A DNA stretch of 64,000 nt from an uncultured bacterium (GTDB lineage Bacteria; Bipolaricaulota; Bipolaricaulia; UBA7950; UBA9294): NCBI GenBank assembly GCA_903857865.1, contig CAIOGO010000020.1:43064-107063 (forward strand), in the 5' to 3' direction. The number at the start of each line of letters is the position of its first letter. The stretch's first letter is position 1. The position numbers were made by a program, and so were the translations under genes. This document shows, piece after piece, positions 23,508 through 36,181 of the stretch. The notes below the pieces were generated by a model. The model did not search any database. It was not told the origin of the DNA and saw only the letters and a list, made by a program, of their open reading frames with translations.

Positions 23508-24368
23508 CTAGCCGTGGCCAAGCGCCGCCCCTCGATCCACTTTCTCGAGGAGTTGAAAGCTTCGCCCTCCCTCGTGGACAAGGCCCACGAGAAGATACCC
23601 GGTCCCGAGCAGCTGTTCGAACACCTCGCGAGTCCCGGCACGCCATCGCCTGGCTTCGGCTGGATTCTCGTCGCGAAGGAGGTCGACATCGACGGGGATC
23701 TCAACGAGCACCTTCGCGAAACCCGGCTCGAGCTTGACGTCGACGAGAAAACGATGGCCGGAGGAGGTCGCCGTCGTGCGGGTCGCGACAGCCATCTCGT
23801 GGAGCCTCACTCGTGCGTGAGACGCGGGTCGGCCCTCCTCGAGAAGGGCCAGCGTTCGCGGAGAACGCAGCCACCACTCCACATCCACGCGATCGGTGGC
23901 CAGGCCGCGATTCGCACTGTCGGATAACTCTCCGAAGACGTTGCGCTCGTAGGTCGTTCCAATGGCACCGGCTTTGTTCCAGAGGAGGTGAGACTCTTGG
24001 CTGCGGAGCGGATCGACCCACGCGCGGACGACGTCGATCCCCTCTTCCTGTGCGAACCGGCGTTCAGCCTCCCGCAGAGAAGAGCCGACTCCCCGGTTCC
24101 TCGCCTCGGGCGATACGCCGAAGACGTGCGAGAAGAGCGCTCCGAACCCCTCCCACGTCGACGAGAGATCCACAATGGCCCCAGCGAGTTCGCGCGTCGC
24201 TGTCCCGGACCTGACACCCAGGAGGAGTCCTCCGCTCTCCGCGACAGCCCGCAACGAGGGGACCGAAAGGACCGACGCGGAGGCACGATCTCCGAACAGG
24301 CGACGCTGTAGGCGCTCGCACGCCGCGAGGTCGTCTAGCGTCCGCAGGCGCTCAACGGCGATAGTCAT
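23508..24368 (-). CDS. Hypothetical protein (possible acyl-CoA N-acyltransferase fold)
   Basis: Coding-like codon bias; RNRGVGSSL resembles a GNAT CoA-binding loop; no firm family assignment. Confidence 0.5.
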   Translation of the reverse strand: MTIAVERLRTLDDLAACERLQRRLFGDRASASVLSVPSLRAVAESGGLLLGVRSGTATRELAGAIVDLSSTWEGFGALFSHVFGVSPEARNRGVGSSLREAERRFAQEEGIDVVRAWVDPLRSQESHLLWNKAGAIGTTYERNVFGELSDSANRGLATDRVDVEWWLRSPRTLALLEEGRPASHARVRLHEMAVATRTTATSSGHRFLVDVKLEPGFAKVLVEIPVDVDLLRDENPAEARRWRAGTREVFEQLLGTGYLLVGLVHEGGRSFQLLEKVDRGAALGHG

Positions 24369-27111
24369 CGGGTTGCTCGACGTGACGGCCTCGCTTGTCC
24401 GCGTATAGACGCCGGTCGGCCTCTTCGAGGATCGCTTCCAGAGAGCGTTTTTCTCGCGGCTGGCGGGTGTAGATCCCGATGCTCAGGCCGAGGGGGATCT
24501 CGCCGACGCCCGTCCGGCGAGGCAGATGCGTCATCTGCTCTCGTAGCCGAGAGGCAACGAGCGCGGCTTCGCTCTCCCCGGTTTCCGGCATGAAAATGAG
24601 GAACTCGTCGCCGCCGTAACGGATGACCCCATCAGATGCACGAACCTGGTCGAGGAGGACGCGCGACATCTCCTGGAGAACCTCGTCGCCCTTGAGGTGG
24701 CCGAAGCGGTTGTTCACGGCGCGGAAGTTGTCGACATCGATCATCATGACAGTGAACGGACGCGCGTAGCGATCGCTTCTCGAAAGCTCGGGAGCAATGA
24801 TCGAGTTGAAGTAGTGGCGATTGAACAGGCCGGTCAGCGGATCGCGGACCGCCTGTTCGCGCAGCGACTGCTGCGACGAGAGGTTGGCGAGCGCCGTGGC
24901 GAGATGGTTCGCAATCACCTCGAGGAGGACCCGATCCTCGTCGTCAAAGAAGCTCGGCTGAGGGCTCTCGATGTTGAGCACGCCGACAAGCTGGGCGGCG
25001 AACAGCAAGGGTACAGCGATCTCGGAACGCGTGCCCGGGAGGGCCTCGAAGTAGCGCGGATCCGAGCTGACGTCGTTGACCAGGGCGAATCGTCGGTTGC
25101 GTGCGACCCACGAGACGATGCCCTTTTCAGCCGGAAGCGTCCAGCCTGTCCCTACACCACGCTCGGGGTACGGGCCGCGCAAGCCGGCGACCGAGAGTCG
25201 ACCGTCCTTCCCGTGCAGAAAGACGGACGCGAGAGGGTAGTTGAACGGCTCAGCGAGGAAATCGAGCGCGCTCGCGACAATCTGATCGACGCTCGTTGCC
25301 TCAGAGACCCGCTGCCCCAGAGCGTAGATGCGCGAGAACGCCTCACGCCGTTCGAGCGCCGACAGGGCGATCGAGAGCTGGCTCGCAACGGAGGAGAGAA
25401 CCGCGAGATCCTGCTCGCCGAACGCGGCGAGGCGCTCGGACTCGACGTCAAGGACTCCGCGGACCCCCTTACGACCGCGGATGGGGATTGCGGCCACGGA
25501 TCGAATGGACGCGCGGGACCCGCGGTAGCGCGGGTCCGACGAGACGTCGTCGACCACGACGGGCTCAAGGTAGCGGACGACCCATCGCGTCAGCCCTTCA
25601 CCCTCCACCGGCCCTCGCGAGCCCCGCGCTGGCATCTCATCGCGGTGGAACGCCTTGCTGGCCGTGGCGCCCCCCAGGACAAGCGAGTCGCCCTCTCGCA
25701 GCCAGACGGCGGAGTAGTCGTAGCCCATGTCGTCGCAGACCCGGAGGGTAGCGGCATCGCACAGTTCCGTTGCCAACCGGATGTGTGCGATCTGGTCGCC
25801 AAAACGCGACAGGCCGTGGAGTCGCTCGTTCTGGACACGCAACTGGTTCAGCTTGTACACCCGCTCGACGGCGAGGGCCGCGAAGCTCGCCAGGTGCGCA
25901 ATCGGCTCGATCGACGCCAACGTGGGCGCGTTCTGGTCTATCGGATCGTCGACCGAGATGCAGCCGACGATGCCCGCCGTCCCGCGCAGAGGGATGAAGA
26001 GGAAGTCATCGACGTGCCATCCTTCCATCGACACCGTCCCGATGATCCCCAAGTTCTGCTCCCATGGGACTCGGTCGTGAGGTATGTAGTAGGCGGGACC
26101 CAGCCGGAACTCGTCCGAGAACGCCTTGCGCCGGTTGGCCGGCGAGAAGTGGCCTTGCTCGAGGAGCGTCCGCCGATCCTCTGGCGACAGCCCCGAGCAG
26201 AGCGTCTTGGCGACCTCGCCATCGATCGGAGAGGGAGCCAAGAGGTCGTAGAGGCTGAGTACGGCTCTACGGAAGCCGCTGTACTCCGTGATCGTGTCGA
26301 GCACGAGTTGGAGGATCCGATCGACATCTTGCTCGCCGAGAATGACCTCGCCGAGCTCGAGAACTACGCGGTGGAGACGGGCGAGCCGCACCTCCGTGGT
26401 CACATCCCGCGCTGTCCCCTCGACGCGTACGCCGCAGCTCGTTTCCATACGCTTCGAGACGATCTCCACGGCGCGCTCTTCTCCGTCCCTAGCGATGAAG
26501 TGGTACGCGCTGGCCTCGCTCGCCGTAGCGCCCTGGAACCTCTCGGAGAGCGCCTCGAGGAGCCTCCGCGCGTCCTGCGGAGCCACGAGATCCTTGACGC
26601 TCATCCCGAGGAGTTCGTCCGCCGAGTACTTCAACGCACTGACCACGTACTCATTGGCGTATGTGAGCCTCTCGCCCTCGACCTCGAACACGCCGATGGG
26701 AGCTTGGTCCATCAGCTGCCGAAACCGCTCGTAGTCCGCATTCCGGGTCCGGCGCTCGCAGGCGCACTGAACCGCAGCGCGCACCGACGACAGCAACGCA
26801 GCTTCGCCGACAGGGAACGGGATCCAGCTTGCGGCTCCGCACCCGTAGGGGGAAACCGCATCGGTCGCGGGGTCCGCCCCATCGATCAGCCCAAGCACAT
26901 CCGCTGCGCCTGACGACAAGCCGACGACATCCCCGAGAGAGTCCATGGCGCTCACGAGGCAGATGACAAGGTCGAACGTCCCAGCACCCTCTCGCCGCCC
27001 GCCCTCCGATGTCTCGACCCTGTACCCAGCTCTCGCCAGACTCCGGGCAAGATCGTTCACTCGTTCGGCATCCCGCCCGACAAGAAGCAGAGATCCTGTA
27101 CATGCCGTCAT
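24352..27111 (-). CDS. Multidomain signalling protein: receiver-like domain, PAS, GAF domains and GGDEF diguanylate cyclase
   Basis: C-terminal GGDEF (RYGGDEFLIF) preceded by GAF/PAS-like segments; N-terminal receiver-like fold with apparent substitutions at usual Asp positions. Confidence 0.8.
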   Translation of the reverse strand: MTACTGSLLLVGRDAERVNDLARSLARAGYRVETSEGGRREGAGTFDLVICLVSAMDSLGDVVGLSSGAADVLGLIDGADPATDAVSPYGCGAASWIPFPVGEAALLSSVRAAVQCACERRTRNADYERFRQLMDQAPIGVFEVEGERLTYANEYVVSALKYSADELLGMSVKDLVAPQDARRLLEALSERFQGATASEASAYHFIARDGEERAVEIVSKRMETSCGVRVEGTARDVTTEVRLARLHRVVLELGEVILGEQDVDRILQLVLDTITEYSGFRRAVLSLYDLLAPSPIDGEVAKTLCSGLSPEDRRTLLEQGHFSPANRRKAFSDEFRLGPAYYIPHDRVPWEQNLGIIGTVSMEGWHVDDFLFIPLRGTAGIVGCISVDDPIDQNAPTLASIEPIAHLASFAALAVERVYKLNQLRVQNERLHGLSRFGDQIAHIRLATELCDAATLRVCDDMGYDYSAVWLREGDSLVLGGATASKAFHRDEMPARGSRGPVEGEGLTRWVVRYLEPVVVDDVSSDPRYRGSRASIRSVAAIPIRGRKGVRGVLDVESERLAAFGEQDLAVLSSVASQLSIALSALERREAFSRIYALGQRVSEATSVDQIVASALDFLAEPFNYPLASVFLHGKDGRLSVAGLRGPYPERGVGTGWTLPAEKGIVSWVARNRRFALVNDVSSDPRYFEALPGTRSEIAVPLLFAAQLVGVLNIESPQPSFFDDEDRVLLEVIANHLATALANLSSQQSLREQAVRDPLTGLFNRHYFNSIIAPELSRSDRYARPFTVMMIDVDNFRAVNNRFGHLKGDEVLQEMSRVLLDQVRASDGVIRYGGDEFLIFMPETGESEAALVASRLREQMTHLPRRTGVGEIPLGLSIGIYTRQPREKRSLEAILEEADRRLYADKRGRHVEQPDDYRR

Positions 27112-27114
27112 CGT

Positions 27115-28017
27115 CTACGCCGCTCCTGTCAGTTCGCGTATCTCCGCATCGCTTCTCGTCCATCCATGGCGCACGGCGACCACGATCTGCAGGAACACGT
27201 GCCTCCGCAGGAGTCGCTCGATATCCCTTCGAGCCCTGGCTCCGATCGACCGGACGCGACTCGCGCCCCGGCCGATGAGGATGCCTTTCTGGGAATCCCG
27301 ATCGACGATGATCTCGGCCTGGATCTCCACCAGGCCATCCTCGCGCTCACGCAGCCACTTCACGTGGACAGCGAGTGAATAGGGGATCTCCTCGTATGTG
27401 ACTTCCATGACCTTCTCGCGAATGATCTCCTCGATCTGGAAGCTCTCCGTGCGATCACAGCGAGTCTCCGCCGGGTAAAGCGGAGGGGACTCCGGCAGAT
27501 GCGCGACAATCGTCGCCACGGCCTCGTCGAGGCCCTGCCCGGTCACTGCGGACATCGGGATGAGTTCGGTGACGACCTCCAACTCCGCGTACGCGAGCAA
27601 CGTCTCCTCGAGATCGCCGCCGCGAGCCCGGTCGATCTTGTTGACCAACACGAGAACGGGACGCTCGTCTCTCGTCAGCCGCGCAAGCGCGGCGCGATCG
27701 ACTTCGTGCACCGTGCGCCACGGCTCGACCATGTACACAACTACATCAACGTCTCGCATGCTGCGGGACGCCTCGCGCATCAGGTGACGACCCAGGCGGT
27801 TCCGCGGACGATGAAGCCCCGGCGTGTCCACGAAGACGATCTGGGACGCGTCGGTCGTCCGGACGCAACGGATGCTGTTGCGCGTCGACTGGGGCCTTGC
27901 GGACGTGATGAGGAGCTTCTCCCCCATCACGGCGTTGAGGAACGTCGATTTCCCCACGTTGGTCTGCCCCAGAACCCCGACGAAACCGCAACGGAACAAT
28001 CGCGCCTCGTTTCCCAT
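27115..28017 (-). CDS. era: GTPase Era
   Basis: G1 GQTNVGKST, G3 DTPG, G4 NKID, C-terminal KH domain. Confidence 0.9.
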   Translation of the reverse strand: MGNEARLFRCGFVGVLGQTNVGKSTFLNAVMGEKLLITSARPQSTRNSIRCVRTTDASQIVFVDTPGLHRPRNRLGRHLMREASRSMRDVDVVVYMVEPWRTVHEVDRAALARLTRDERPVLVLVNKIDRARGGDLEETLLAYAELEVVTELIPMSAVTGQGLDEAVATIVAHLPESPPLYPAETRCDRTESFQIEEIIREKVMEVTYEEIPYSLAVHVKWLREREDGLVEIQAEIIVDRDSQKGILIGRGASRVRSIGARARRDIERLLRRHVFLQIVVAVRHGWTRSDAEIRELTGAA

Positions 28018-28105
28018 ACCTTCGCCTCAAATAGACGACCCCGCCGCACATCCCCTCGTGCCTCCTGGGGTCGACGAACCTCAAGTATACGCGGCCAGGA
28101 CTGCA

Positions 28106-28134
28106 TTGTAAAGCGCACGCGCTCGGCCTATACT
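28106..28134 (+). promoter_or_regulatory. Promoter TTGTAA-17 nt-TATACT heading the amidohydrolase-ispE-cmk-plsC-rpsA operon, divergent from era
   Basis: Hexamers read directly; -10 ends 14 nt before the ATG at 28149 with no Shine-Dalgarno. Confidence 0.45.
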
Positions 28135-28148
28135 CACCGCCGATCCCG

Positions 28149-29318
28149 ATGATCACGCTCGTGACGAACATCCGCCAACTGGTGACCCCGCGTGGGACCG
28201 AGCCTGCCGCCGGAGCGGCGATGAGCGAAGTCCAGGTCCAGACGGGCGTGACCCTTGTGATTCGCGACGACCGAATCGTGGCCGTGGAGCCCACCGGAGC
28301 CACCCTCAAGGGAGATCACGTGATCGACGCGAGGGGAGGCGTCGTCGTCCCCGGCCTCGTCGACGCTTGTTTGACGGCGCAGTCGAGCGGTGTGCGCGGC
28401 GAGGTCGCGACTCATGTCCTTCCCGGAGCGTCGGAGTCCCAGGAGGAGCGAGACCTCAGGCAGCTGCGCGTCGGAATGGAGACTCTCCTACGGCACGGGA
28501 CGACGAGCTCGGAGATTCGGGCCGAGGCTCGCGATGGAGATGCCGCCCTCGAGAGGATTCTTGCCGGTATCCAACAGCTCGTCCGGTGCGTCCCGTTGCG
28601 GCTGTCGGCGGCGTTCCTCGGTGCGCCGCAAGTCGGCATGGGATCGGAGCGTTCGGACCGCATCACGAAGCTGATTGGCGAGACCATTCCCACGGTGAGT
28701 CGCCGCCACTTGGCGTCGACGTGCGTCCTCCTCTGCGGCGAGGGCGGGTTCGGCCGGAAGGAGGGACGAGCTGTGCTTCGCGCTGCGCGCGGCGCGGGCC
28801 TGACGCTCAAGATTCAGGCTGCGGGCGCCGACGCAGACGCCATCCTCTTGGCCTTCGAGCTCGAGGCGGCGTCCGTCGACCACTTGGCGAGCTCCGCCCC
28901 GGATGCGAAACAGCTCTCGTTGCTCAAGAAGGCAGGCACGATCCCCGTTCTCCTTCCCGCGGAGCCTGTCGCGCGGGAAGGCTCGTGGGGGACCGCAAGG
29001 CCGTTCGTCGACGCTGGACTCGCCGTCGCGCTCGGCTCGTCGGCCGATCTAGGCTCCGGAGGGGTCTTCTCGATGTGGACGGGGGTGGCGCTCGCGGTAC
29101 GAAAACTCGGCCTCTCCCTGGCCGAGGCCATCACCGCGGCCACGCTCAATGCGGCGGCCGCGATCGGATCGAGCCACCAGGTCGGCACTCTCGAGCCAGG
29201 CAAGTTCGCGGACCTCGTCATTCTGAACGTCGACGACTATCGCGCGATCCCCAGCTTCATCGTTGGCCTTCCTATTCGAGCCGTCATCGTCGGAGGAACG
29301 GAGCTATTCCTACCATGA
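28149..29318 (+). CDS. Amidohydrolase-superfamily protein (imidazolonepropionase-like) lacking the canonical HxH metal motif
   Basis: PGLVDACLTAQ where the family normally has the two-His motif after PGxVD; later conserved segments partly retained. Confidence 0.7.
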   Translation: MITLVTNIRQLVTPRGTEPAAGAAMSEVQVQTGVTLVIRDDRIVAVEPTGATLKGDHVIDARGGVVVPGLVDACLTAQSSGVRGEVATHVLPGASESQEERDLRQLRVGMETLLRHGTTSSEIRAEARDGDAALERILAGIQQLVRCVPLRLSAAFLGAPQVGMGSERSDRITKLIGETIPTVSRRHLASTCVLLCGEGGFGRKEGRAVLRAARGAGLTLKIQAAGADADAILLAFELEAASVDHLASSAPDAKQLSLLKKAGTIPVLLPAEPVAREGSWGTARPFVDAGLAVALGSSADLGSGGVFSMWTGVALAVRKLGLSLAEAITAATLNAAAAIGSSHQVGTLEPGKFADLVILNVDDYRAIPSFIVGLPIRAVIVGGTELFLP

Positions 29319-30157
29319 GGGCAACGTCGTTAGCCTTCGCCAAACTCAACCTCTTCCTCGCGGTGCACGGGCGGCGGGAGGACGGGTTTCATGAGATCGA
29401 ATCGATTGTCCAGACCATCGACCTCGCCGATCGAATCGAGGTTGACGTCCGCCCGGGCACAGGCATCGTCGTGGAGAACACACTCGCCGACATCCCAGGT
29501 CCGGATCTCGCAGAGCGCGCCGCGGCGACATGCCTGGCCGTGAAGGAGGTCTCGCTCCACGTGGAGATCCGAATCCAGAAGGGCATTCCAGCGGGTGCCG
29601 GACTCGGTGGAGGATCGTCCGATGCCGCCGCCGTGCTCCAGTCCCTCGACCGCCTCGTTCCGCCTCGCCTTGCCGACGAGGAGCTGAGGAAACTCGCAGC
29701 CGGGATCGGCTCGGACGTCCCCCTCTTTCTCGTCGGCGGCTGCGTCCGCATCACGGGGCGAGGGGAGATCGTCGAACGGCTCCCCGGCACGCGCCGCGAG
29801 CGATTCGTGGTCGTCGTCCCTCCGATGCGATGTCCAACAGCCGACGTCTACAGAGCGTGGGCGGCGCATCGCCCCCCGCGTCCGGGCACTGCATCCGCTC
29901 TTGGATCGAACGATCTCCTGGCTCCCGCTCTCGCCGTGCGCCCGCAACTTCGCCGCTACGAAGAGGCCGTCGCCCACAGCGGAGGGCTGTACTCCGGCAT
30001 GAGCGGAAGCGGGTCCTCCTTCTACGTCGCTTTCTCTGCCGAAGATCGAGCCGACACATGCGGGCGCGAATTGCGGGAGACACTGCCGGAGTGCGCCGTG
30101 TTCGTCTGCGGCCCGACGTGCGCCGGAGTGGTGGAGCTGGAACCGGAGGGCCCATGA
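29315..30157 (+). CDS. ispE: 4-diphosphocytidyl-2-C-methyl-D-erythritol kinase
   Basis: AKLNLFL N-terminus, GHMP kinase motif PAGAGLGGGSSDAAA; ATGA overlap with upstream stop. Confidence 0.85.
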   Translation: MRATSLAFAKLNLFLAVHGRREDGFHEIESIVQTIDLADRIEVDVRPGTGIVVENTLADIPGPDLAERAAATCLAVKEVSLHVEIRIQKGIPAGAGLGGGSSDAAAVLQSLDRLVPPRLADEELRKLAAGIGSDVPLFLVGGCVRITGRGEIVERLPGTRRERFVVVVPPMRCPTADVYRAWAAHRPPRPGTASALGSNDLLAPALAVRPQLRRYEEAVAHSGGLYSGMSGSGSSFYVAFSAEDRADTCGRELRETLPECAVFVCGPTCAGVVELEPEGP

Positions 30158-30780
30158 GGATCGCGATTGACGGTCCGGCGGCGTCGGGGAAGACATCGGT
30201 CGGGCGAACGCTGGCGCAGCAATTCGGCTGTCGGTTCATCGAAACCGGGAACATGTACCGCGCGGTGGCGCTCGCCATGGCGCGCGGGCTTCCTTTGGAC
30301 GCCATGACCATCGACATCACGGAGGACGAGCGACTTCTGCTCAACGGAGAGGATGTGACGGGCCTGCTCCATACACCCGAACTGGACCAGCGTTCGTCGG
30401 AGGTCGCGACGAGGCCCGACGTTCGCACCAGGCTCGTCGCCCTGCAACGAGAGATGGCCGGCCGCCGCGATGTGGTCATGGAGGGCCGCGACATCGGGAC
30501 CGTGGTCCTCCCCGACGCCGACGTCAAGATCTTCCTTCGCGCAAGCTCCGACATCCGCGCGAGGCGGCGAGCCGGCGAGCGCGGCGATCACGATCTCGCG
30601 GGGACCATAGAGCAGCTTCGCTCCCGTGACGAACGGGACTCGACCCGGGCCATCGCGCCCTTGAACCCCGCTTCGGACGCAACTATAATCGACACCGATC
30701 AAAAGACCCTCGCAGAGGTCATTTCCGCAGCAGCTGACCTGGTCAAGGAGCATCTGAACGAGCGTTGGCACGGCGTCTAG
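30154..30780 (+). CDS. cmk: Cytidylate kinase
   Basis: P-loop IAIDGPAASGKTSV, typical length; ATGA overlap with ispE stop. Confidence 0.9.
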   Translation: MRIAIDGPAASGKTSVGRTLAQQFGCRFIETGNMYRAVALAMARGLPLDAMTIDITEDERLLLNGEDVTGLLHTPELDQRSSEVATRPDVRTRLVALQREMAGRRDVVMEGRDIGTVVLPDADVKIFLRASSDIRARRRAGERGDHDLAGTIEQLRSRDERDSTRAIAPLNPASDATIIDTDQKTLAEVISAAADLVKEHLNERWHGV

Positions 30781-31394
30781 GAATTGCATTCAAGAACGGC
30801 CTCTACACCGTTTTCGTCGTTCTTGCTGGCGTTGCGCTGCGGATCCTCTTTCGTCTTCGGGTCGAGGGACGATCGAACGTCTCGCGCAGCGAAGGCTACA
30901 TCGTTGTAGCTCGCCATCGTAGCTACTGGGACATCCCGATGGTCACAGCGGCGCTCGGCGCGACGAACCGGGTTCACTTCATCGCCCGCAAGGGATTGAT
31001 GAAATCGAATCCGCTCGTTCAACCGTTGATCCGAGCGTACTCCACGGTCATCGACCGCGAGCACTTCGGGTTGGCGGACTTCCGCCAGGTGCTTGACGCT
31101 GTCGGGCGAAAGCGCTTGGTCTTCATCTTCCCCGAGGGGACCACCCGGCACCGAGTTGACGCAAAGGGCGGCGCGGTGTACTTTGCATCGGCAGCCGGAA
31201 AGAGAATCCTTCCGATCAACATCCGGGCGGTTGGACCGTACCCGCCGAAGTACCCGTTCCAGTTTCCACGGGTGACCGTGTCGATCGGGGCGCCGATCGC
31301 CGTCGCCGACCTGGAAGGTGAGGCAGACGTCCGACGGTCGGAGAAGCTGCGCGACATGAGCGAGCGGCTCATGAAGAAGGTCGACTCCGTGTAG
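30765..31394 (+). CDS. plsC: 1-acyl-sn-glycerol-3-phosphate acyltransferase
   Basis: Acyltransferase motifs HRSYWD and FPEGTT; apparent TTG start overlapping cmk end, start uncertain. Confidence 0.75.
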   Translation: MARRLGIAFKNGLYTVFVVLAGVALRILFRLRVEGRSNVSRSEGYIVVARHRSYWDIPMVTAALGATNRVHFIARKGLMKSNPLVQPLIRAYSTVIDREHFGLADFRQVLDAVGRKRLVFIFPEGTTRHRVDAKGGAVYFASAAGKRILPINIRAVGPYPPKYPFQFPRVTVSIGAPIAVADLEGEADVRRSEKLRDMSERLMKKVDSV

Positions 31395-31414
31395 CTTGAT
31401 CTCTAGGGGTCAGT

Positions 31415-33259
31415 GTGGAAGCGATCCGGCAGGCGAAAGCCTGGCCGGGCGGCGCAGTGTGGATCTGGCAGTGGAGAATGGAACAGAAAATCAAGATGGA
31501 GGACGCTTTCTCTGAAAGCGATGTGAAGATGTACAGTCGCGGAGACACGATCTCCGGGACTGTCGTCCAAGTAGGCGACAGCGAGATCCTTGTCGACATC
31601 GGCTACAAGTCGGAAGGAATCCTGCCGGTGTCGGAGCTGTCCCCCTTCCGAGCGGGCGGGAAGATCGATGCGGGCGAGCAGATCGAGGTGCTCGTCACGT
31701 ACATCGATGAGGAGAAGGGGACCGTCTACGCGTCCGAGAAGCAGGCCGAATACGAGAAGCGCATCGACGGCCTCGAGGCCGCGTACCAAGAGGGCCACGT
31801 TATCGAGGGCGAGATTACAGGCGAGGTCAAGGGGGCCGGGTACCACGTAAATCTCGATGGCATCCGCGCCTTTCTGCCAGGCTCGCACCTCGGCAGCGAC
31901 CTGCCGAGCAGCATTGAGGAGCTGCGCGGGAAGAGAATTGCGTTCCGGATTCTCGAGCTCTCTCGCCGTGACAAGAACCTGGTCGTCTCGCACAAGGAGT
32001 ACATCAAGGACCGCGAGCGCACGAAGCGCAAGGCGCTCTTCGACTCGCTCCAGCCGGATCAGGAGATCGAGGGCGTCGTCCGCAGCGTCGTCGACTTCGG
32101 TCTGTTCGTCGATATCGGTGGTTTCGAAGGGCTCGTCCATCGATCGGAGATTGCGTGGAAGGACCTCCCCGTCCCTCCGTCCGAGTATAGAGTCGGCACG
32201 CACACCAAGGTGAAGGTCATCGACTTCGATCGTGAGAAGGGCAAGGTCTCCCTCTCGATTAAGCGTCTGCGCCCGAATCCGTGGAGCGGCATCTCGGAGC
32301 GCTACGCGACGGGCTCGCAGGTCGAAGGGAAGGTCGTCAGCGTCACCGACTTCGGCGCGTTCGTCGAGCTCGAACAAGACATCGAAGGGCTCGTCCACAT
32401 CTCAGAACTTTCGTGGGGACACCCGGAGAATCCGAAGGACGTCGTCAAAGAGGGCGACATGGTGCCCGTCATCATCCTCAGCTGTGATGAGGAGGCGCGC
32501 CGCATCAGCCTGTCGTTGCGGCGAACGCAGCGCGACCCGTGGGAGAGCGTCGAGACGAAGTACGCTCGCGGCCAGGTTGTCGCGGGAACCGTCACGAAGA
32601 TCACGGACTTTGGGGCGTTCGTGAAGCTCGAAGAGGGTGTCGAGGGACTGGTCCACGTCTCGGAGATCGACTGGGGGCATGTTAACCACCCGCGCGACGT
32701 CCTGAAGGAAGGCGAGAGCGTCCAAGTCAAGATCCTCAGCGCGGACCCGCGCGAGCGTCGCATCTCGCTCAGCATCCGCGAGCTCAAGGATAACCCGTGG
32801 CGGCGATTCATCGACAAGTTCTCGATCGATGATGTTGTGGACGGCGAGATCACCGAGATCAAAGAGTTCGGCGCCTTCATGAAGATCACCGACGAAGTCG
32901 ACGGGCTGATTCACGTCTCCGAGATCTCGAACGAGCGCATCGCCACCCCCGCCGACGTCCTCGCCGTGGGTCAGAAGATCCAAGCGAAGATCATCGGCAT
33001 CAACGAGGAGAAGCACCAGGTTCGCCTCAGCATGCGCAACCTGTTCGGCCCACCGGAGGTTCCCGCTGTCCCGACCGACGACGAAGACCGGGACCGCGCC
33101 GGACGAGGCAAGCGACGCCGCGCGACGCCCGCAGGAAAGGAACGGCCGGCGCGAGCGAGAGAGAAGGTTGATCGACGCTTCCTCGACGAGGGCGGCCACG
33201 AGTCGCTCAGCATGCGCGATCTCTTGGGCAAGACTGGGTTTGACGACGAGGCTCAATAG
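31415..33259 (+). CDS. rpsA: 30S ribosomal protein S1
   Basis: Six tandem S1 domains (repeated G.V..ItdfGaFV..e.gveGLvH.SEi); start could be GTG 31415, ATG 31478 or ATG 31496. Confidence 0.9.
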   Translation: MEAIRQAKAWPGGAVWIWQWRMEQKIKMEDAFSESDVKMYSRGDTISGTVVQVGDSEILVDIGYKSEGILPVSELSPFRAGGKIDAGEQIEVLVTYIDEEKGTVYASEKQAEYEKRIDGLEAAYQEGHVIEGEITGEVKGAGYHVNLDGIRAFLPGSHLGSDLPSSIEELRGKRIAFRILELSRRDKNLVVSHKEYIKDRERTKRKALFDSLQPDQEIEGVVRSVVDFGLFVDIGGFEGLVHRSEIAWKDLPVPPSEYRVGTHTKVKVIDFDREKGKVSLSIKRLRPNPWSGISERYATGSQVEGKVVSVTDFGAFVELEQDIEGLVHISELSWGHPENPKDVVKEGDMVPVIILSCDEEARRISLSLRRTQRDPWESVETKYARGQVVAGTVTKITDFGAFVKLEEGVEGLVHVSEIDWGHVNHPRDVLKEGESVQVKILSADPRERRISLSIRELKDNPWRRFIDKFSIDDVVDGEITEIKEFGAFMKITDEVDGLIHVSEISNERIATPADVLAVGQKIQAKIIGINEEKHQVRLSMRNLFGPPEVPAVPTDDEDRDRAGRGKRRRATPAGKERPARAREKVDRRFLDEGGHESLSMRDLLGKTGFDDEAQ

Positions 33260-33295
33260 GAAGACGAGAGCAGGTTGCAAGGAGGCTTGTAGAAG

Positions 33296-33607
33296 ATGAA
33301 CAAGGGCGAATTCATCGATCGGCTGGCGGAGAAGTCGAACCTTACGAAAAAGGAAGCGCGGAAGCTGCTTGACAACGTGCTTGATCTGGTTCAGGACTCC
33401 CTCCTGACTGGCGACGAAGTCAAGCTGGTGGGGTTCGGGAAGTTCGCCGTGCGCGCACGCAAGGCGAGCAGCCGCATCAATCCGCAGACCAAGCGGCCGA
33501 TTCAGGTGGAAGCGAAGGTCGTCCCGCTGTTCAAGCCGGGGAAGGAGCTGAAGCGCCGAATCGAGAAGGCGCTCAAGGCGGCGCCGAAGGGCGTCACAAG
33601 AAAGTAG
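33296..33607 (+). CDS. hup: HU family DNA-binding protein with Lys-rich C-terminal tail
   Basis: MNKGEFIDRLAEKSNLTKKEA...GFGKF...R.A.SRINPQT; RBS AAGGAGG before ATG. Confidence 0.9.
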   Translation: MNKGEFIDRLAEKSNLTKKEARKLLDNVLDLVQDSLLTGDEVKLVGFGKFAVRARKASSRINPQTKRPIQVEAKVVPLFKPGKELKRRIEKALKAAPKGVTRK

Positions 33608-36110: not shown

Positions 36111-36181
36111 TGGGAGATCGTTCAATGGCAGGACAGCAGGCTCTGGCCCTGTTAATGGGGGTTCGAATCCTCCTCTCCCAA
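36111..36181 (+). tRNA. tRNA-Gln (anticodon CUG)
   Basis: Manual fold: 7-bp acceptor TGGGAGA/TCTCCCA, D-arm GTTC-AATGGCA-GGAC, anticodon arm GCAGG-CTCTGGC-CCTGT with CTG centred after U33, T-arm GGGGG-TTCGAAT-CCTCC; no encoded CCA. Confidence 0.85.

Follow-up and report, generated by a model that had tools for sequence, protein, structure and literature searches.

INTRODUCTION

What does a protein do that is built like an amidohydrolase and lacks the residues that hold the metal, and why does its gene stand at the head of an operon with ispE, cmk, plsC, and rpsA? This question is raised by a gene at 28149..29318 on the plus strand of a 64,000-nucleotide stretch of DNA (hereafter, the window) from an uncultured bacterium of the Bipolaricaulota (assembly GCA_903857865.1, contig CAIOGO010000020.1). 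The gene starts with ATG and encodes a protein of 389 amino acids with the predicted fold of HutI, the imidazolonepropionase, in which all four metal ligands are substituted. A sequence-only reading of the window had described an amidohydrolase-fold protein without the H-x-H metal motif that normally follows PGLVD and had proposed that it may be a noncatalytic paralog or an enzyme that uses a different chemistry. Here, we report that the gene is orthologous by position to a genuine hutI, and we consider it probable that its product is a noncatalytic pseudoenzyme that has been kept as a folded protein under selection.

RESULTS

The window protein has the predicted fold of HutI

The window protein matched two Pfam amidohydrolase profiles, Amidohydro_1 (PF01979; 67.3 bits, cutoff 25) and Amidohydro_3 (PF07969; 59.6 bits, cutoff 29.7). 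Its top NCBIfam model was the hutI equivalog TIGR01224, for which it scored 165.1 bits and thus remained below the cutoff of 298.15, while two active relatives encoded at the same locus scored 435 bits (P0051) and 426 bits (P0081). Relatives of the window protein carry the Joint Genome Institute (JGI) label “imidazolonepropionase,” although the curated hutI model is not passed. The solved structure closest in sequence was Bacillus subtilis HutI (2bb0; E = 2e−33).

An AlphaFold2 model, generated with a 113-sequence alignment as input, had a mean predicted local distance difference test score (pLDDT) of 91.8 and a predicted template modeling score (pTM) of 0.92, and residues 82 to 93, with a pLDDT below 50, formed its only disordered stretch. 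In a Foldseek search with this model, HutI structures led the results (2bb0 and 2g3f with a TM-score of 0.88 at 27% identity and 2gok with 0.83), other amidohydrolases followed at 0.66 to 0.75, and the top 50 matches consisted of HutI and other amidohydrolase-fold proteins. The model displays the architecture of the amidohydrolase superfamily, in which a beta-sandwich domain is inserted into a (beta/alpha)8 barrel. By profile and predicted fold, the window protein is therefore a member of this superfamily, in agreement with the fold that had been read from the sequence.

All four metal ligands are replaced in the window clade

In mononuclear enzymes of the superfamily, the metal ligands are the H-x-H motif of strand 1, a histidine of strand 5, and an aspartate of strand 8, and a histidine of strand 6 assists (Seibert and Raushel 2005, as cited in PMC1431709). 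This assignment agrees with the 100% conservation that we found at four positions in 70 aligned HutI sequences. The counts given below refer to the 113-sequence alignment, which comprised these 70 canonical HutI proteins, 36 sequences of the clade that contains the window protein (the window clade, or Tier A), and 7 sequences of a third group (Tier B); HutI residues are numbered as in B. subtilis 2bb0, and all coordinates are on the plus strand.

At the end of barrel strand 1, C74-L75-T76 (28368..28376; DNA tgt-ttg-acg) has taken the place of H-x-H, changing His80 to Cys and His82 to Thr; the corresponding stretch of the 389-residue open reading frame reads VVVPGLVDACLTAQ. H-x-H was present in 70/70 canonical HutI sequences and in 0/36 sequences of the window clade, where the first ligand position holds Cys (28/36) or Phe (8/36) and the second Thr, Trp, or another residue. 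Because 36/36 clade members are without the motif, the alignment indicates that its loss is neither a product of chance nor a sequencing error.

The loss goes further than the missing motif that had been noticed from the sequence. On strand 5, Q223-A224-A225-G226 (28815..28826) replaces H249-A-D251-E252, that is, a metal ligand together with acidic residues; the His249 position is Gln in 34/36 window-clade sequences and His in 70/70 HutI proteins, and the Glu252 position is Gly in 34/36 of the clade. On strand 8, S298-A299-D300 (29040..29048) replaces D324-F-N326, which includes the last metal ligand; Asp324 is invariant in HutI (70/70), while its position holds Ala, Ser, or Gly in 35/36 clade members, 29 of which have Asp at the position of Asn326 (D300 in the window protein). 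The loss of essential catalytic residues thus amounts to 4/4 metal ligands and is clade-wide. What is left of the His/Asp metal center at the strand ends is H245 on strand 6 (28881..28883), the equivalent of HutI His272 and the sole retained active-site histidine (His in 34/36 clade sequences). Metal ligands that are present but shifted would have offered another explanation, but alignment with imidazolonepropionases showed all four positions to be substituted and yielded no substitute among the six histidines of the window protein, of which only H245 is conserved at a HutI site.

The HutI pocket has changed as well. P160 (28626..28628), at the end of strand 3, replaces His185 (Pro in 36/36 clade members, His in 68/70 HutI proteins), and the tyrosine of the SGYG motif (Tyr152) is also lost in the window protein. 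A shortened variable loop (approximately residues 78 to 97; 28380..28439) replaces the GGI/GGGI-containing loop that follows strand 1 in HutI: its median length is 8 residues in the window clade versus 27 to 32 in aligned HutI, and about 20 residues of the conserved loop have been deleted, leaving a gap opposite 2bb0 residues ~96 to 120. His185, Glu252, Tyr152, the Tyr102 loop, and Asn326, which we take to be substrate-binding elements of HutI (2g3f), are 97 to 100% conserved in HutI and lost in the window protein. In the AlphaFold2 model, the positions of the altered site and of H245 are found where strands 70 to 78, 151 to 158, 219 to 225, and 242 to 244 end on their C-terminal side or directly beyond, as well as in the segment at ~294 to 300, and are predicted to face the amidohydrolase active-site side of the barrel (strands 1, 5, 6, and 8). 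We infer from these replacements that the protein has probably lost both metal binding and the hydrolysis of imidazolone propionate.

The gene exists in three states

The starting sample consisted of the best 120 database relatives, the named ones being mostly Candidatus Bipolaricaulota metagenome-assembled genomes (MAGs), and its sequences fell into three states. Tier C is canonical HutI, represented by 49 sequences (rank 42 to 97; named ones from Bipolaricaulota) and 21 more distant ones, and keeps all catalytic residues. Tier B contributed 7 sequences to the best 120 relatives and, once the search was made exhaustive, comprised 18 representatives at 50% identity. The metal ligands H,H,H,D were intact in 18/18 of these diverged representatives (P0038, P0039, P0062, and 15 others), while H185, D251/E252, and N326 were lost and the loop was shortened; three tested members scored 202 to 252 bits against TIGR01224. 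Judged by these residues, Tier B proteins are probably active amidohydrolases (metallohydrolases) with a substrate other than that of HutI. Tier A is the ligand-less clade of 36 sequences, including the window protein, and four tested members scored 157 to 185 bits. The reading frame is intact in all 36, which share 42 to 94% identity with the window protein and come from many independent metagenomes. MAGs with the dead form include GCA_040961015.1 (P0011) and GCA_026390345.1 (P0031), and one with the active form is GCA_040960625.1.

In neighbor-joining trees, Tier A was nested inside a Tier B grade, and Tiers A and B together formed the sister group of the Bipolaricaulota HutI clade. Eight Tier A sequences form a subclade with F-x-W in place of C-x-T; one of them, P0035, bears the NCBI label “Thermotogota bacterium” (MAG), and its closest relatives are Bipolaricaulota, so that the label is probably a binning or taxonomy artifact and not a sign of transfer.

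The gene occupies the slot of hutI, and the adjacent hutH has been deleted

We compared the window with loci of Tier A (L081, L083, and L096 and the close relatives L090 to L094), Tier B (L085/L086, L089, and L101), and Tier C (L087, L088, and L100, which encode P0051, P0081, and P0067, respectively). Every locus long enough to show gene order was collinear, with a GGDEF/GAF protein gene and era on the minus strand, followed by hutI(-like)-ispE-cmk-plsC-rpsA-hup on the plus strand and gmk-yicC-memo on the minus strand. The Tier B genes (L085:10001-11161 for P0038, L089:7978-9156 for P0062, and L101:5001-6170 for P0039) are likewise the first cistron of the ispE operon, and a 4-nucleotide ATGA or GTGA overlap with ispE was found in 8/9 related loci, including all three of Tier C.

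The loci differ between era and hutI. In 3/3 Tier C loci, this space holds hutH, a minus-strand gene of about 500 codons, whose product in L087 scored 615 bits against TIGR01225 (cutoff 539) and contains the ASG motif. The space between era and the hutI-like gene was without hutH in every Tier A and Tier B locus that we examined, and likewise in L098. Searches by tblastn with HutH found no remnant in the Tier A and Tier B loci or in the 64-kb window, and tblastn searches of these loci and of the window for a second hutI were equally negative, with nothing below E = 0.5 in either case.

The window gene shares its slot, its ispE overlap, and its flanks with active hutI, and its protein belongs to the sister group of Bipolaricaulota HutI in the tree; the gene is therefore the positional ortholog of genuine hutI and not a paralog. 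Of the “noncatalytic paralog” proposed from the sequence, the first word probably stands, given the ligand loss, and the second does not. The operon link is present with active hutI, and it therefore predates the decay and is uninformative about the present function. For the same reason, we rejected guilt by association with ispE, cmk, plsC, and rpsA as a clue to what the protein does, since active hutI has the same arrangement.

Three further observations concern the HutI loci. A basal Bipolaricaulia HutI (P0089, L097) is encoded in a conventional hutH-hutI cluster beside an arginase-fold gene, possibly hutG, and not beside ispE. The Tier C loci carry acpS (PF01648) between hup and gmk (L087:15429-15803, L088:15349-15720, and L100:10448-10816), which is absent from the Tier A and Tier B loci. 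L087 also has recO between deoC and atpC, and this gene, too, is absent from the Tier A and Tier B loci.

The gene is under purifying selection

We estimated the ratio of nonsynonymous to synonymous substitution rates (dN/dS, or omega) by the method of Nei and Gojobori for five close metagenome relatives with 88 to 96% identity. The hutI-like gene gave values of 0.14 to 0.26 at dS of 0.09 to 0.37, and on the same contigs ispE gave 0.17 to 0.31 and era about 0.10. Omega was 0.12 to 0.38 over all three thirds of the gene, and the strongest constraint lay in the middle third and not at the 3′ end beside ispE. Protein identities of the hutI-like gene and ispE were also close, at 70% versus 68% to L081 and 50% versus 55% to L083. 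The hutI-like gene is far from neutral evolution, and purifying selection on it is as strong as on ispE.

Over longer distances, we scaled the divergence of hutI(-like) to the average for its neighbors era, ispE, cmk, and plsC. This relative divergence was 0.67 to 0.70 between Tier C loci (3 pairs), 1.32 to 1.38 between Tier B loci (3 pairs), and 1.39 to 1.51 between Tier A loci (5 pairs). Since Tier B and Tier A are nearly equal and about twice as high as Tier C, an approximately 2-fold acceleration of the gene coincided with the loss of HutI function, and the loss of the metal site brought no additional increase.

The length of Tier A proteins is held at 372 to 391 amino acids down to about 43 to 50% identity, with indels mainly in the variable loop after strand 1. 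New constraints relative to HutI have appeared, namely, the invariant residues E135, R203, T311, G340, and R377 and the nearly invariant R9, and several replacements are themselves conserved (K to R124, H to P160, Y to R171, and H to Q223). The F-x-W subclade shares the clade-wide invariant residues E135, P160, R171, R203, and R377, and Q223 is nearly invariant.

Alternative explanations for the retention of the gene

Three other accounts of the gene were weighed against a selected noncatalytic function, which is most likely what the protein has. In the first, the effect of the gene is exerted in cis: the frame would be kept for the operon promoter and 5′ end and for ATGA-coupled translation of ispE-cmk-plsC-rpsA, and the protein would be functionless. 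This would explain why the gene was not deleted. The overlap with ispE is kept in active, metal-keeping, and dead versions of the gene, and its presence in all three states means that the coupling predates the decay. The roughly 2-fold acceleration relative to the neighbors after hutH loss also fits, as do the erosion patterns, which differ by lineage (C-T-Q-S, F-W-Q-A, F-I-H-G, V-V-S-G, and others), as expected under lost constraint, and the failure to find a new signature common to the family. However, a frame kept for its position predicts a dN/dS near 1, and the observed range equals that of ispE. The constraint peaks in the middle third rather than at the 3′ end, protein length is held with indels concentrated in the strand 1 loop, charged residues (E135, R203, and R377) have become invariant, and the predicted fold is fully intact. 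We therefore regard a purely cis-acting role as unlikely.

The second account is that of an enzyme with a different chemistry, as the sequence-only reading had suggested, which might use a Cys74/His245/Asp300 triad, an alternative metal site, or metal-independent catalysis; the last is known in a few members of the amidohydrolase superfamily. C74 is present in 28/28 sequences of the C-x-T subclade, H245 and D300 are widespread in the clade (34/36 and 29/36), and the replacement residues are predicted to sit at the C-terminal ends of strands 1, 5, 6, and 8 on the active-site face. The sister grade, Tier B, with its metal site kept in every diverged representative, has probably remained an active hydrolase that acts on a new substrate. 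C74 and D300, however, are the only candidate new residues, and both fail in the F-x-W subclade, whose eight sequences have Phe74 and Trp76 and mostly Ala, Asn, or Ser at position 300. Because this subclade sits at the same locus and carries the clade invariants without C74, a Cys-based mechanism cannot be the conserved function of the whole clade. Moreover, all of the residues around the HutI pocket that are 97 to 100% conserved have been lost, and LigI and other amidohydrolase-fold enzymes that work without a metal are not known to have given up the His/Asp constellation. A new chemistry thus appears to us quite improbable.

The third account, a decaying pseudogene or an artifact of assembly or gene calling, could appeal to the missing catalytic residues and to the JGI label on relatives that fail the curated model, but it is hardly credible given the intact frame in 36 sequences of 42 to 94% identity from many independent metagenomes, and it is refuted by a dN/dS of about 0.2, the omega of each third, and the confident AlphaFold2 model.

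Ligand loss recurs among HutI-like proteins

We searched 1.84 billion representatives exhaustively with a profile and obtained 671 with E ≤ 1e−30. Ligand loss recurred among the HutI-like proteins recovered, although the best 150 of these 671 are enriched for eroded sequences, since it was the dead clade that supplied the query profile. A second eroded group of about 375 amino acids, kin to Tier B, shows the ligand patterns F-I-H-G, V-V-S-G, C-K-F-G, N-N-H-S, and H-H-S-E (P0139 at L098:3128-4264, P0129, P0133, P0137, P0144, P0155, P0162, and P0183), and P0139 has the same era/hutI-like arrangement as the window. These sequences suggest that the metal site was lost more than once in lineages without hutH.

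A separate and apparently large HutI-like clade, with about 30 representatives of 400 to 440 amino acids, has Gly or Asn in place of Asp324 and variable further ligand losses, with patterns such as H-Q-Q-G, Q-Q-R-G, and C-Q-Q-G (among others, P0205, P0140, P0145, P0185, P0195, P0207, P0208, P0219, P0228, and P0256). The gene for P0205 (in L099:267-2926) overlaps the start of the gene that directly follows it, which encodes a formimidoyltransferase-cyclodeaminase (FTCD). P0205 thus has a histidine/formimino context despite its lack of a canonical metal site, and the clade may represent an undescribed HutI-like family.

Operon and surroundings of the gene in the window

The hutI-like gene heads the ispE-cmk-plsC-rpsA operon, as had been proposed, and the coordinates and NCBIfam matches bear this out, except that the plsC match is below its cutoff. 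The stop codon of the gene (TGA, 29316-29318) and the ispE start codon (ATG, 29315-29317) form an ATGA overlap at 29315..29318 on the plus strand, which would couple their translation. ispE (29315-30157; 173 bits, cutoff 139), cmk (30154-30780; 190 bits, cutoff 136), a gene for a PlsC-type acyltransferase (30765-31394), rpsA (about 31415-33259; 665 bits, cutoff 524), and an HU/IHF-family gene (33296-33607) follow on the same strand, the last closing the co-oriented downstream set (29315..33607). ispE and cmk overlap by 4 nucleotides and cmk and plsC by 16, so that these genes form a chain of overlapping cistrons. The rpsA open reading frame as called starts at a GTG (31415) and encodes 614 amino acids, while orthologs have 572 to 624 as called and their alignments with it set in about 20 to 35 residues after this start; translation probably begins at an ATG farther downstream within 31415-31500 (MEQKIKMED...).

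Upstream, the divergent neighbor is era, which encodes the GTPase Era (27115..28017, minus strand; NCBIfam Era equivalog, 317 bits, cutoff 237). The 131-bp region between the two genes (28018..28148) is the slot that holds hutH in relatives with active hutI. It contains two overlapping pairs of promoter-like hexamers, TTGTAA-17-TATACT on the plus strand (28106-28134) and TTTACA-17-TATACT on the minus strand (28112-28084), each a candidate by consensus match. The plus-strand −10 hexamer ends 14 nucleotides ahead of the hutI-like ATG, with a predicted transcript start near 28141, and a Shine-Dalgarno sequence is not apparent; both features suggest an mRNA with a very short leader or none. Directly downstream of era lies the gene for a 919-residue PAS/GAF/GAF/GGDEF protein of the diguanylate cyclase type (24352-27111, minus strand), and Pfam matches on the orthologs showed that this position beside era is kept in all related loci. 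Scans for tRNAs and Rfam families gave no match near the hutI-like gene; the sole match in the 64-kb window was a tRNA-Gln(CTG) at 36111-36181 on the plus strand.

DISCUSSION

We propose that the window protein is a pseudoenzyme left by the loss of a pathway partner and kept for a role other than catalysis. The course of events would have begun with a divergent hutH/hutI pair between era and ispE, in which hutI was already the first cistron of the ispE operon. hutH would then have been deleted in a lineage of Candidatus Bipolaricaulota. The residues specific to HutI would have been lost next, with the metal site kept, as in the Tier B state, and finally all four metal ligands would have been lost, as in Tier A with the window protein. 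Today, the protein would be made from the cistron that opens the ispE-cmk-plsC-rpsA operon and may act by binding a ligand in the remodeled pocket or in a structural or regulatory role.

A more specific version of this history is possible, and we offer it tentatively. Once histidine utilization had been dismantled, hutI would have been repurposed twice, first into a metallohydrolase with a new substrate (Tier B) and then into a protein that holds no metal and binds a ligand or acts as a scaffold (Tier A). The pocket residues R124, P160, Q223, and H245 of the latter, together with the new invariant charged residues E135, R203, and R377 elsewhere in the protein, might serve a regulatory or structural role. 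The protein would then belong to a new HutI-derived pseudoenzyme family, one instance of a wider and repeated loss of ligands among HutI-like proteins in metagenomes.

Several points weigh against a noncatalytic protein kept for a function of its own. The case against catalysis is drawn from the loss of residues, and in the C-x-T subclade a new site might conceivably be built from C74, H245, and D300. When we looked for residues that would unite Tier A and Tier B with the remaining eroded lineages, the only candidates were weak ones (W310, G296, and L70), and the case for one shared new function is therefore weaker. Part of the constraint could come from selection against misfolding of a first cistron that must be translated. 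Loss of the hut pathway, finally, is seen as the local deletion of hutH, with neither hutH nor a second hutI present in the 64-kb window.

If the protein does have a new noncatalytic role, a HutI-derived family would join the short list of dead amidohydrolase-fold proteins. Such homologs are already known, but a case derived from HutI was not reported in the literature that we searched, in which no inactive imidazolonepropionase was described and “pseudoenzyme” and “amidohydrolase superfamily” were paired only in a general review of enzyme bioinformatics. The same search returned nothing on histidine catabolism in Bipolaricaulota. With the active ancestor, the intermediate, and the dead state at one chromosomal position, and with the trigger of the decay, the deletion of hutH, visible at the locus, the gene would offer a clean and datable example of the passage from enzyme to pseudoenzyme. 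There is also a practical consequence: metabolic reconstructions of Bipolaricaulota that use the JGI label “imidazolonepropionase” as evidence of histidine degradation would be wrong.

How does the window protein compare with known systems? It shares with HutI (EC 3.5.2.7; 2bb0/2g3f from B. subtilis and 2gok/2puz from A. tumefaciens) the two-domain build of a (beta/alpha)8 barrel and a beta-sandwich, and 51 positions are conserved in common between HutI and the window clade. Unlike HutI, it has none of the four metal ligands, His185, the D251/E252 pair, the SGYG tyrosine, or the long strand 1 loop, and it scores under the TIGR01224 cutoff. Its closest active counterparts, the hutI genes of the three Tier C loci, have the same slot, ispE overlap, and flanks and encode proteins with about 40% identity, but their catalytic residues are complete, hutH lies immediately upstream in divergent orientation, and they evolve at about half the relative rate. 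The Tier B proteins are closer in state: the three that were looked up (P0038, P0039, and P0062) share the locus, the absence of hutH, the loss of pocket residues, and the short loop, and they differ from the window protein in having kept the H,H,H,D metal site.

Outside the HutI family, the CRMP/DPYSL proteins have a dihydropyrimidinase-like amidohydrolase fold without metal ligands and are kept for protein binding; they are eukaryotic and functionally characterized, and they descend from a different parent enzyme than the window protein. PyrC′ of the Pseudomonas aspartate transcarbamoylase (ATCase) and the pseudo-dihydroorotase (pseudo-DHOase) domain of fungal URA2/CAD are inactive amidohydrolase-fold homologs with a role in assembly or as a scaffold (PMC4581275). 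As is probable for the window protein, the fold has been kept, catalysis has been lost, and the protein has been retained. These homologs, however, belong to the DHOase family, have a known partner in ATCase, and arose as a recruited paralog or a fused domain, whereas the window protein is a HutI ortholog that would have been left behind when its pathway was lost.

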